64,000 nt of DNA from an uncultured Eubacteriales bacterium (lineage in GTDB: Bacteria; Bacillota; Clostridia; Peptostreptococcales; Anaerovoracaceae), in the NCBI GenBank assembly GCA_900542295.1, contig UQNJ01000005.1, positions 51,162 through 115,161 of the forward strand, given 5' to 3'. The first letter of the stretch is position 1, and each line of letters begins with the position of its first letter. Under the pieces are notes generated by a model. That model worked only from the letters and a program-made list of their open reading frames with translations, did no database searches and was not told the DNA's origin. A program made the translations under genes and the position numbers. Positions 31,957 to 33,270 of this stretch are shown in pieces.

Positions 31957-33270
31957 TTACTTTTCCTCCAACTCTATGTAACCTACTCCATCTTTGATTT
32001 TTAAGTCAGTTCCCATTTCAGCACACAGCTTTTGCATGGAAACAAGAATACCGGTGTTTTCCGTAAGCTTAGGCAGCCCTCTTGTATACCTCGGAAGTTC
32101 CTGGTTTAAAGTTATCGGATATAAATAAACTCGCTGTATTTTCCCGTCTTCTACTATCCATTTTGCAACAACTGAATTCCATACATCCTTGTTTACGCCA
32201 AGTCCAACCTTTCCGCCTTGACTTCTCCTGTCCATTCCTGCGCCAACCTGCGCATCATAAGGAAGCCCGTATTTTTCATAAAAATCTGCCGGCTGATGAG
32301 CAGTAGTATCGTTTTCAAATATAAAGTTGCCCAGACTGTAGAAAATCAATCCGCCTTTATAACATTCTATTCCCCTGAGCACATGTGGTCCGTGACCCAA
32401 AACAGCAATCGCTCCGGCATCAATACATTCTCTTGCAAAAGTCTTCAAAAACTCTGCCGGATAGTCCTTTCTCAAGCCTCCGAGCTCATGGGAATGTATA
32501 CTCACCATAACATAGTCAGCCTGAGATTTTGCTTCTCTTATGGAAGCCTTTATCCTTTCCATATCCCGCTTGTCGGGAATAGTCTCTTTGTATGTTTTTT
32601 CAGATTCAACAAAGCTTTTGCCTGCAAATTTAAAGGCTCCCGGTGTTTCTACCGCAAACCCCTCCTTAATGTCGAGCTCTTGCTGAGCATCGATAAGAGT
32701 TTCATGAGCAATCTCTCTCAACGCTTCAAGCTGTGATTTGCTTACATGAAATTTTTCCTCATGTCTTAAAGGATTTACTCCGGGTCTTCCCTTCATATCT
32801 CCTCTCTGGTTTCCCGCTGTCCATGCTTCATGAAATGTGGCGGTTGCCGCTATCAGTGCAACTCTTCCGGAAGAACATTCCAAATATACCGGAGCCGCTG
32901 CATCTGCCAGATTTTCTCCGATACCTGCAAATCTTACGCCCTTTTCCTTAAGATGCCTTATTGTAGCCATCAGACCGTTATGACTGTAATCCATTGAATG
33001 ATTGTTGGCTGCATTATAAAGATTAAAGTTATATTTCTTCAAGTCATCAAGAACAGCAGGCGATGCCATAGCCCATGTTCCGCCGCTGAAAGGATAAGGG
33101 TATCCCTCTCTGTCATGTATTGTGGTTTCCAGATTTGCAAATCTGACCTCAGATTCACCGACTAATTTCACTATTTGCTCAAGACCATCGTATCCGGCTT
33201 CCGCCAGAGGTCTGTTCATAAATATATCTCCCACAGCAGTGAAAGAAATTCGTGCTCCCATAATTTTCAT
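31957..33270 (-). CDS. CapA/PgsA-family protein (poly-gamma-glutamate-capsule-synthesis-like metallophosphatase fold), soluble form
   Basis: Motifs FANLETTI and YNFNLYNAANNHSMDYSHNG are characteristic of the PGA_cap (CapA) family. The start is at MKIMGAR after RBS GAAAGAGG. Confidence 0.7.
   Translation of the reverse strand: MKIMGARISFTAVGDIFMNRPLAEAGYDGLEQIVKLVGESEVRFANLETTIHDREGYPYPFSGGTWAMASPAVLDDLKKYNFNLYNAANNHSMDYSHNGLMATIRHLKEKGVRFAGIGENLADAAAPVYLECSSGRVALIAATATFHEAWTAGNQRGDMKGRPGVNPLRHEEKFHVSKSQLEALREIAHETLIDAQQELDIKEGFAVETPGAFKFAGKSFVESEKTYKETIPDKRDMERIKASIREAKSQADYVMVSIHSHELGGLRKDYPAEFLKTFARECIDAGAIAVLGHGPHVLRGIECYKGGLIFYSLGNFIFENDTTAHQPADFYEKYGLPYDAQVGAGMDRRSQGGKVGLGVNKDVWNSVVAKWIVEDGKIQRVYLYPITLNQELPRYTRGLPKLTENTGILVSMQKLCAEMGTDLKIKDGVGYIELEEK

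Follow-up and report, generated by a model that had tools for sequence, protein, structure and literature searches.

In this study, we analysed a stretch of 64,000 nucleotides from an uncultured Eubacteriales bacterium (contig UQNJ01000005.1; hereafter the window) and found that the 437-aa protein encoded at positions 31957 to 33270 on its minus strand, which is labelled 'CapA family' (Pfam PGA_cap), is almost certainly a soluble protein of the MslH type and not a subunit of a poly-gamma-glutamate (PGA) synthetase. Moreover, by analogy with MslH, we propose that it probably acts as a metal-dependent two-base C-alpha racemase/epimerase within a hydantoin-type pathway. While the MslH-type epimerase as such is known, the new element would be a catabolic member of this type that is partnered with a hydantoinase and a carbamoylase, and that probably works on a small molecule.

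MslH catalyses the reversible epimerisation of the C-terminal residue (Trp) of its peptide substrate in the pathway of the lasso peptide MS-271 in Streptomyces (PMC10406935, PMC8179263), and through this enzyme a catalytic role, epimerisation, is established for the fold. The earlier note on this DNA had held that no catalytic role was established for the family, a statement that passed over MslH, by far the closest characterised relative. When the PDB was searched with the window protein, MslH was the sole solved match from end to end (8GQ9, E 7e-66, residues 13-434), at an identity of 34%, and the best NCBIfam match, over the full length, was the MslH epimerase model (NF038314, epimerase_MslH; 269.2 bits vs an equivalog cut-off of 700). 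An AlphaFold2 model made with 32 homologues as input (predicted local distance difference test, pLDDT, 93.1; predicted template modelling score, pTM, 0.92) was aligned by Foldseek to MslH (8ITG) with template modelling (TM) scores of 0.93/0.92 and a root-mean-square deviation of 2.1 A over about 440 columns, whereas the next-best fold, that of the phosphodiesterase YmdB, gave a TM score of only 0.39. In alignment to MslH, the window protein has not only the calcineurin-like core but also both subdomains that are specific to MslH, namely the G-domain (residues 144-234; positions 32569 to 32841, minus strand), a grip subdomain that forms the substrate cleft, and the C-domain (residues 318-364; positions 32179 to 32319, minus strand), a cover subdomain that lines the side-chain pocket and contains Asn320, Arg349 and Leu357.

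The active site of MslH binds one Ca(II) on Glu44, Asn87, His259 and His261, and is completed by the facing dyads His88/Asp91 and His295/Asp11; all these metal and dyad residues are essential by mutagenesis, and the C-terminal carboxylate of the substrate sits on the metal (PMC10406935). All eight residues are kept in the window protein and are invariant across 86 aligned family members. The Ca(II) ligand Glu44 corresponds to Glu48 within the motif FANLETTI (positions 33127 to 33129), the ligand Asn87 and the dyad His88/Asp91 correspond to Asn90-His91-x-x-Asp94 within ANNHSMD (32989 to 33003), Asp11, the partner in the His295 dyad, corresponds to Asp15 (33226 to 33228), and His295, the second acid/base catalyst, corresponds to His296 within GHGPH (32383 to 32385), the positions being those of the alignment on the minus strand and the roles those assigned in MslH (PMC10406935). 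The remaining two ligands, His259 and His261 of MslH, align with His259-Ser-His261 (32488 to 32496, minus strand), so that a single metal would be held by Glu48, Asn90, His259 and His261. The window protein is therefore like MslH in length, in its calcineurin-like core with G- and C-domains, in its Ca(II) ligands, in both His/Asp dyads and in being soluble and cytoplasmic, and its presumed substrate shares with that of MslH an N-acyl-amino-acid unit with a free carboxylate. It is unlike MslH in that the latter belongs to lasso-peptide biosynthesis and acts on a peptide of 40-odd residues, whereas the context of the window protein is catabolic and its substrate is probably a small molecule. Nor does it qualify as an MslH orthologue: its score of 269.2 bits falls below 700, the hydrophobic pocket for Trp21 is not kept, and no lasso-peptide cluster is present, with no precursor peptide, no recognition protein for RiPPs (ribosomally synthesised peptides with post-translational modifications), and no lasso B1, B2 or C genes among its neighbours.

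The gene itself starts with an ATG at 33270 and stops with the codon at 31957-31959, and the interval and length given in the earlier note were exact, with the strand now to be given as minus; the plus-strand reading of the same interval was rejected, as it is riddled with stops. Both motifs quoted in that note are also in place: residues 44-51 read FANLETTI, and residues 80-91 read YNFNLYNAANNH. A Shine-Dalgarno-like GGAAAGAGG ends 4 nt ahead of the ATG, and an alternative in-frame TTG lies 15 nt 5' of it. An identical protein is encoded, with the gene order unchanged, on each of 14 independent contigs from metagenomes, so that the open reading frame (ORF) is a genuine, conserved gene and did not arise by chance; the nearest named genomes, both of uncultured gut Clostridia, are Firmicutes bacterium CAG:145 (82%) and Candidatus Fimisoma avicola (77%). 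In the spacer between the preceding gene and this one, just 5' of the ribosome-binding site (window 33271-33330, minus strand), there is a perfect 9-bp palindromic hairpin (AAGGAAAGC-loop-GCTTTCCTT) with no clear T run, which may serve as an intercistronic stabiliser or attenuator.

The protein is predicted to be soluble and to lack a membrane anchor. Its highest 19-residue Kyte-Doolittle mean is 1.10, and 0.78 within the N-terminal 60 residues, vs 2.57 for the membrane anchor of CapA from plasmid pXO2 of Bacillus anthracis (residues 25-43). Membership of the PGA_cap superfamily (PF09587) is clear, with E 6.6e-60 over residues 10-319 and 203.2 bits vs a gathering cut-off of 27, and CapA/PgsA proteins (B. 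anthracis pXO2 CapA, B. subtilis PgsA) share with the window protein the core metallophosphatase-type motifs GD, NLE-like, NNH..D and GHxPH. In contrast to the window protein, which has no capsule context, they carry an N-terminal membrane anchor and are encoded alongside their partners CapB and CapC. The similarity of pXO2 CapA to the window protein does not extend over the full length: it is confined to two local segments, residues 7-165 (29% identity) and 237-319 (39%), with the G-domain nearly missing (24 aligned residues vs 91, about 70 residues fewer) and with Gly at the second position of the HSH motif vs His261, and in the family tree pXO2 CapA is a remote outgroup. A tblastn search of the 64-kb window with pXO2 CapB, CapC, CapD and CapE gave no homologue (best E 0.07), CapB and CapC had no match at E<1e-3 in 90 related loci, and the genes that flank the window gene all fall in non-capsule families. 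Thus the earlier note's description of a soluble, non-capsule member was sound, and the combination that it took as the mark of ordinary capsule synthesis, an anchor together with pgsB/pgsC partners, was found neither in the protein nor, for the partners, in the window or the related loci.

The catabolic context is seen in the other genes of the operon. A seven-gene unit on the minus strand consists, in order of transcription, of an IclR regulator, an NhaC-type transporter, a TRZ/ATZ amidohydrolase, the MslH-like gene, a hydantoinase/dihydroorotase-like cyclic amidohydrolase (hereafter HYD), an M20 amidase and an EamA protein; the earlier note had rightly placed the gene between an amidohydrolase and a hydantoinase-like gene; all three are on the same strand, the gaps being 44 bp and 1 bp, respectively. 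The TRZ/ATZ-type protein (33315 to 34739, minus strand; 474 aa) is deaminase-like and has as its nearest PDB entry the methylthioadenosine/S-adenosylhomocysteine deaminase 4F0R (E 6e-47). HYD (30555 to 31955, minus strand; 466 aa; Pfam Amidohydro_1), whose start follows directly on the stop of the MslH-like gene, is closest in the PDB to 1GKR, the non-ATP L-selective hydantoinase of Arthrobacter (E 2.8e-86), well ahead of D-hydantoinases, allantoinases and dihydroorotases (~1e-62 to 1e-64). The M20 protein (29341 to 30549, minus strand; 402 aa) belongs to the hydantoinase/carbamoylase family of amidases (TIGR01879, 351 bits vs a cut-off of 204), and its nearest PDB entry is the N-carbamoyl-L-amino-acid hydrolase 3N5F (E 2.3e-62). 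A class I (Asp/aromatic-type) aminotransferase is encoded further downstream (22538 to 23773, minus strand), and is a probable downstream step because its gene stands directly after the M20 gene in four relatives (loci L004, L012, L098 and L105).

In classical hyu clusters, a hydantoinase and an L-carbamoylase are joined by a third enzyme, a racemase, which belongs to the Asp/Glu/hydantoin racemase family. In the window, a cyclic amidohydrolase of the hydantoinase/dihydroorotase group and an M20 N-carbamoyl-L-amino-acid amidohydrolase are both adjacent. Neither the operon nor representative loci of the three operon types described below contain an Asp/Glu/hydantoin racemase gene (PF01177). We propose that the MslH-type gene fills the place of the racemase in the hyu cluster by means of a different fold. 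Like HyuA and HpxA, the PF01177 racemases, it would complete the pair of hydantoinase and L-carbamoylase with an enzyme that inverts the configuration by two-base proton transfer at C-alpha (C5). However, those racemases have an unrelated fold and use two cysteines and no metal, in contrast to two His/Asp dyads and a metal, so that the window protein would be a non-orthologous replacement, and it may act not on the hydantoin but on the N-carbamoyl-amino acid that ring opening yields. A chemical parallel to the proposed reaction is offered by the N-succinylamino acid and N-acylamino acid racemases (NSAR/NAAAR) of the enolase superfamily, which, with the help of a metal and two bases, racemise N-acylated amino acids whose carboxylate is free, and which accept N-carbamoyl-amino acids and are paired with L-specific M20-type deacylases. 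NSAR/NAAAR differ in having an enolase TIM barrel, a Lys/Lys pair and Mg2+, and show no kinship with the window protein in sequence or structure. In the literature covered, from which most subscription journals were missing, no paper was found that ties the MslH fold to hydantoinase, carbamoylase or orotate clusters, and, within the same incomplete coverage, no calcineurin-fold small-molecule racemase was found described.

The co-occurrence of this subgroup with hydantoinase and carbamoylase genes, which the earlier note had raised, is real. Among 80 loci from different species, co-directional HYD and M20 genes stand beside an MslH-like gene in 20, in three operon layouts and in both Clostridia and Bacillaceae, with intergenic gaps from -4 to about 100 bp or with one nitroreductase gene in between. 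In type A (the window, L004, L011 and L012), the order is IclR, NhaC, TRZ/ATZ, MslH-like gene, HYD and M20, then aminotransferase. Type B, of Lachnospiraceae and relatives, has an ATP-binding cassette (ABC) transporter, HYD, the MslH-like gene, M20, dihydroorotase and a haloacid dehalogenase (HAD) gene, then PyrK and PyrD. Type C, of Bacillaceae, has a tripartite ATP-independent periplasmic (TRAP) transporter, PucR, M20, PyrK, PyrD, HYD, an optional NfsA-like nitroreductase and the MslH-like gene. In the tree of the MslH-like family, types A and B form one clade, which includes the window protein, and type C forms a Bacillaceae grade; identities between types run in parallel for the two partners, at about 51-53% for HYD and 50-60% for the MslH-like protein. 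A reverse survey that started from the HYD subfamily in metagenomes found an MslH-like gene in 21 of 80 loci (16/42 where at least 2.5 kb flanked both sides), and two further layouts, IclR-TRZ-X-HYD-M20-NhaC-TRZ-EamA and TRZ-TRZ-HYD-X, with X for the MslH-like gene. There are also M20-PyrK-PyrD-HYD operons that lack the MslH-like gene. Because it is absent from some otherwise identical operons, the MslH-like gene is a frequent yet dispensable, accessory partner, and such dispensability is what one would expect from a helper that inverts configuration and not from a hydrolytic step that the pathway must have. A systematic swap for a classical racemase was not seen in the HYD loci without an MslH-like gene, the one case being L133, in which a gene of the arylmalonate decarboxylase (AMDase)/Asp-Glu-racemase superfamily lies in the operon; as a single example, it is a weak instance of the displacement to be expected. 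In three other metagenomic loci without an MslH-like gene (L109, L111 and L140), two tandem copies of the HYD subfamily follow a carbamate-kinase-like (AA_kinase) gene, which hints at an ATP-yielding variant of ureide fermentation without the M20 carbamoylase.

The fold, the conserved residues, the solubility, the missing capsule partners and the recurring gene context are results of the analysis, and from these we infer the type of reaction, its substrate and its direction. How the proposed racemase/epimerase would operate can be outlined from MslH. In the cytoplasm, the calcineurin-like fold would hold one divalent metal (Ca or Mn) on its four ligands, with the dyads His91/Asp94 and His296/Asp15 opposed across the C-alpha of the substrate. 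The metal would polarise the carboxylate of an N-carbamoyl-amino acid, or the C4 carbonyl of a hydantoin; His91, activated by Asp94, would take the C-alpha proton, which leaves an enolate, and this would receive a proton on the opposite face from His296, with Asp15 as its partner, so that the configuration is inverted in a reversible manner. The resulting equilibration of D and L forms would let the L-specific M20 enzyme, or a stereoselective HYD, draw all the material towards the L-amino acid, and a racemic or D cyclic ureide would thereby be converted in full to an L-amino acid that is then transaminated. If this reading is right, we lean somewhat towards the linear N-carbamoyl-amino acid, rather than the ring compound, as the substrate, because it is N-acylated and has a free alpha-carboxylate and so presents the same unit as the peptide C-terminus in MslH.

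As to the side chain of the substrate, the residues that form the Trp pocket of MslH (Gly60-62, Leu64, Ile319, Tyr345, Leu348, Leu355 and Phe356) correspond in the window protein to G63, G64, T65, A67, N320, M346, R349, G356 and L357. Arg349, which corresponds to Leu348 of MslH, is invariant across the family. Among the positions that separate hydantoinase-linked members from peptide-type members (see below) are 357, in the pocket, and 199-205, in a helix of the cleft-forming G-domain; the hydantoinase-linked members share N320, L357, W150, L199, E203 and F205, which the peptide-type members do not. The linked HYDs all carry HxHSRD...KEDF...EMPNxxP (EMPNxNP in the window HYD), as does, in the form HVHLRD...YKED...MPNTNP, the dihydroorotase of A. 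aeolicus, whereas the hydantoinase 1GKR, which takes hydrophobic substrates, has HVHIID...MPITFP at these positions. The Arg and Asn of the dihydroorotase motif bind the carboxylate of the substrate. Moreover, operons of types B and C encode paralogues, at equivalog level, of class-1B dihydroorotate dehydrogenase (401 and 383 bits vs 269) and of dihydroorotase (622 vs 576), TRAP transporters typically carry carboxylates, and a bona fide aspartate ammonia-lyase is present in four peptide-type loci. Taken together, Arg349, the dihydroorotase-type motifs of HYD, the dihydroorotate dehydrogenase and dihydroorotase paralogues, the TRAP transporter, the aminotransferase and the aspartase point to an acidic ureide, and the side chain is probably acidic, derived from aspartate or glutamate, as in dihydroorotate, 5-carboxymethylhydantoin or N-carbamoyl-aspartate.

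Hidden Markov models do not discriminate among the specificities of allantoinase, ErtD-type enzymes and dihydroorotase-type enzymes; HYD passed both TIGR00857 and, marginally, the allantoinase model TIGR03178 (366.6 vs 357.85), and the M20 protein scores near allantoate amidohydrolase models. Allantoin is thus a possible substrate, which would make the window protein an analogue of allantoin racemase. An allantoin pathway as such was nevertheless not adopted: the other allantoinase models fail widely, the nearest solved relatives are an L-hydantoinase and an L-carbamoylase, and no enzymes for ureidoglycine or ureidoglycolate are present. The route of ergothioneine via hydantoin-5-propionate (ErtD/ErtE) was also set aside, since its models are reached at about half of their cut-offs; it would fit an acidic hydantoin, with no orthology.

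These clues to an acidic substrate call to mind Clostridium oroticum, in which the catabolic pathway comprises orotate reductase, dihydroorotase, carboxymethylhydantoinase and ureidosuccinase, and the textbook route leads from orotate through L-dihydroorotate and N-carbamoyl-L-aspartate to L-aspartate. To our knowledge, the genes for the orotate fermentation of this organism, which dates from the 1950s, were never assigned. An extra class-1B dihydroorotate dehydrogenase copy (PyrK and PyrD, at equivalog level), embedded in an operon together with a dihydroorotase-like HYD, an M20 carbamoylase-type amidase, PucR, and TRAP or ABC transporters, is found in a series of loci (L006, L007, L014, L016, L019, L023-26, L031, L034, L037, L039, L042, L052, L066, L067, L082, L146, L151 and L164-L171). 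This looks like a catabolic pathway from orotate, or an analogue of it, to aspartate, the genes of which are apparently undescribed so far.

Several points weigh against the assignment of the window protein as a racemase/epimerase of this pathway. The route from orotate in types B and C needs no inversion of configuration, and the origin of a D or racemic intermediate is left without explanation. With 34% identity to MslH and 269 bits vs 700, the reaction could have diverged, and the conserved residues are largely inherited metallophosphoesterase motifs, which by themselves do not separate an epimerase from a hydrolase. The enzyme activity of the clade of about 430 aa is a prediction, the placement of Arg349 inside the pocket follows from the mapping of residues onto MslH, and the choice between a linear and a cyclic substrate was made by chemical analogy. 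Finally, MslH was at first reported to be metal-independent in vitro (PMC8179263), and the details of the role of its metal are soft.

One rival is a hydrolase whose cleavage of an amide, ureide or gamma-glutamyl bond, or of a phosphoester, the pathway could not do without. It goes back to the earlier note, which took the position of the gene to imply a catalytic role in small-molecule catabolism and suggested, with a question mark, a metallophosphatase-fold hydrolase. The first part of this claim has gained from our analysis, since the catabolic operon points to catalysis, and it is the hydrolytic chemistry that does not fit best. It is true that the calcineurin-like fold is classically hydrolytic and that phosphodiesterases, purple acid phosphatases and 5'-nucleotidases are among the more distant fold matches of the model, yet TM scores to true phosphoesterases do not exceed 0.39, and the sole characterised close relative is a single-metal epimerase whose catalytic arrangement is fully kept. 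Likewise, the operon is full of hydrolases, but with its deaminase, its ring-opening amidohydrolase and its carbamoylase it already has an enzyme for each bond open to hydrolysis in a substrate of the hydantoin or iminohydantoin type, and the existence of otherwise identical operons without the gene is not what an obligatory step would permit. Two neighbours elsewhere in the family speak for hydrolysis, namely a gamma-glutamyl hydrolase-type gene beside the homologue of Sinorhizobium and a HAD phosphatase-like gene in type B operons, with which a phosphorylated substrate is conceivable. Because the MslH acid/base and metal residues are invariant, the amide bonds are already served and the gene is dispensable, we prefer a racemase/epimerase and regard a hydrolase as unlikely; if the protein were one after all, this would be the first hydrolytic activity assigned to the clade.

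Other enolate chemistry on a pathway intermediate, by a tautomerase, a double-bond isomerase, a beta-elimination lyase (which would release urea from N-carbamoyl-aspartate) or a decarboxylase, also seems quite unlikely to us. It has no precedent in the MslH fold, although active sites that form enolates have often been taken over for new reactions. No obvious requirement for inversion is seen in the orotate-type operons, and a nitroreductase-family flavoenzyme often lies between HYD and the MslH-like gene in type C, which hints at an extra redox or isomerisation step; however, the M20 carbamoylase is kept in nearly all linked operons, so that the amino acid is still set free by hydrolysis, and two His/Asp dyads in symmetric arrangement are what marks a two-base racemase (PMC10406935).

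The wider family brings in a further alternative, that the window protein is a C-terminal epimerase of short peptides with D-residues, such as cell-wall or aged-protein fragments, and that its position in the operon is incidental. The soluble family of about 430 aa is large: at E<1e-10 it exceeds 3,693 clusters, each of which is named 'CapA family' or 'PGA synthesis protein'. Of 55 loci that are not linked to hydantoinase, 40 have the gene within four genes of an Opp/Dpp peptide ABC transporter, an M20 hydrolase or an S12 beta-lactamase-fold protein; one type of M20 protein in these peptide-type loci passes TIGR01891 (aminoacylase/carboxypeptidase subfamily), and the S12 protein is closest to Pab87 (2QMI), which we take to be a D-stereospecific peptidase. 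The Sinorhizobium homologue, encoded on a plasmid and 34% identical, has a dipeptide ABC transporter on one side and a C26 gamma-glutamyl hydrolase-type gene, an Xaa-Pro peptidase and a TIGR01891 amidohydrolase on the other. What the peptide and hydantoinase contexts have in common is an L-specific M20 amidohydrolase that cleaves an N-acyl-amino acid with a free C-terminal carboxylate, and it is this unit that is epimerised by MslH, which links the M20 contexts to the chemistry of MslH. Thus the majority of the family, and MslH itself, which acts on a peptide, would suit a peptide epimerase. The window gene, on the other hand, is translationally coupled to HYD within the unit of seven genes, its link with HYD and M20 turns up in two classes of bacteria and in three architectures that are independent of each other, no peptide transporter is present in the hydantoinase-linked operons, and the pocket and cleft residues of the linked members differ from those of the peptide type, so that we consider a peptide epimerase unrelated to its neighbours improbable here.

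Last, a CapA/PgsA subunit for ordinary PGA capsule synthesis, as the Pfam match and the names that all homologues bear in databases ('CapA family', 'poly-gamma-glutamate synthesis protein') would have it, is effectively refuted by the lack of a transmembrane anchor, the lack of capB/capC in the window and the related loci and the fragmentary, outlying similarity of pXO2 CapA, and we give it practically no chance; the role proposed for PgsA/CapA as the glutamate epimerase of PGA synthesis is itself a proposal only (PMC8179263).

If the window protein is indeed a racemase/epimerase of the hydantoin-type pathway, thousands of soluble proteins that are annotated as 'CapA / poly-gamma-glutamate synthesis' and carry a capsule Gene Ontology term without any capsule context would need correction, and the chemistry of MslH would extend from one Streptomyces RiPP pathway to catabolism in gut Clostridia and in soil and halophilic Bacilli. 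The operons would then also supply gene candidates for the orphan enzymes of ureide and orotate fermentation, ureidosuccinase and carboxymethylhydantoinase, as well as a racemase of a new type for use in the industrial process with hydantoinase and carbamoylase, where dynamic kinetic resolution is limited by racemisation of the hydantoin or the N-carbamoyl-amino acid. A broader proposal, which we put forward tentatively, is that HYD, the MslH-like protein and M20 constitute an unrecognised route for racemic or D acidic ureides (5-carboxymethylhydantoin, N-carbamoyl-D-aspartate) that is tied to the orotate fermentation of C. oroticum, with the window protein as the first dedicated N-carbamoyl-amino-acid racemase, and that the whole 'CapA family' of about 430 aa (>3,600 clusters; Bacillota, Bacteroidota, Spirochaetota, Chloroflexota, Pseudomonadota and haloarchaea) might consist not of capsule proteins but of epimerases of the C-terminal residue, which supply L-specific M20 hydrolases with D-residue peptides and N-acyl-amino acids.

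A small number of family members, from Bacteroidota and spirochaetes, lie in polysaccharide clusters. Those of L008/L018, L032 and L047 (Bacteroidota and Treponemataceae; about 50% identical) are found in clusters of the polysaccharide/O-antigen type next to a CapK_C-domain protein that resembles adenylate-forming ligases, a hexapeptide transferase and glycosyltransferases, which suggests epimerisation of an amino-acid decoration on a glycan. Two paralogous MslH-like copies occur in one locus in each of two metagenome-assembled genomes of Clostridia (L048 and L056).

The remaining genes and signals of the operon are as follows. The unit opens with the IclR-family regulator (36426 to 37214, minus strand; Pfam HTH_IclR and IclR_C), 5' of which a sigma-70-like consensus promoter, TTGACA-16-TGnTATAAT (37247 to 37274, minus strand), is matched as a pattern at 12/12 positions, and it continues with the 529-aa NhaC-family transporter (34782 to 36371, minus strand; Pfam Na_H_antiporter). 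Its last gene encodes the EamA-family membrane protein (28486 to 29319, minus strand; Pfam EamA), and 3' of this gene a terminator-like hairpin with an 18-bp stem and a T run (28339 to 28380, minus strand), again a pattern match, is the probable end of the operon. An Rfam scan of the operon found no riboswitch or leader RNA.

Directly 3' of the operon (window 23795-28306, minus strand) lies a Na+-translocating decarboxylase set, composed of a 420-aa shortened MmdA-like carboxyltransferase, OAD_gamma, a biotin carrier, OAD_beta and a 468-aa OadA. The latter has no biotin domain of its own, and the set thus holds two different types of carboxyltransferase. It is missing at this place in the close relatives L004 and L012, and OadA alone is left in L011 and L097. 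These genes appear to form a unit of their own and were not counted as members of the operon, as they lie beyond the terminator-like hairpin and, in close relatives, do not stand between M20 and the aminotransferase.

On its other side, the catabolic operon is inserted immediately 3' of the rpoA-rplQ end of the ribosomal protein cluster, a placement that is the same in L004 and L005. Between rplQ and the IclR promoter region there is a 192-aa ORF on the plus strand (window 37582-38160); in L001, gene callers predict a product of 179 aa here from the opposite strand. Elsewhere in the window, a bacterial large signal recognition particle RNA (17434-17619, minus strand; 104 bits) and an S10-Clostridia ribosomal-protein leader (53993-54067, minus strand; 41.9 bits) were recognised.

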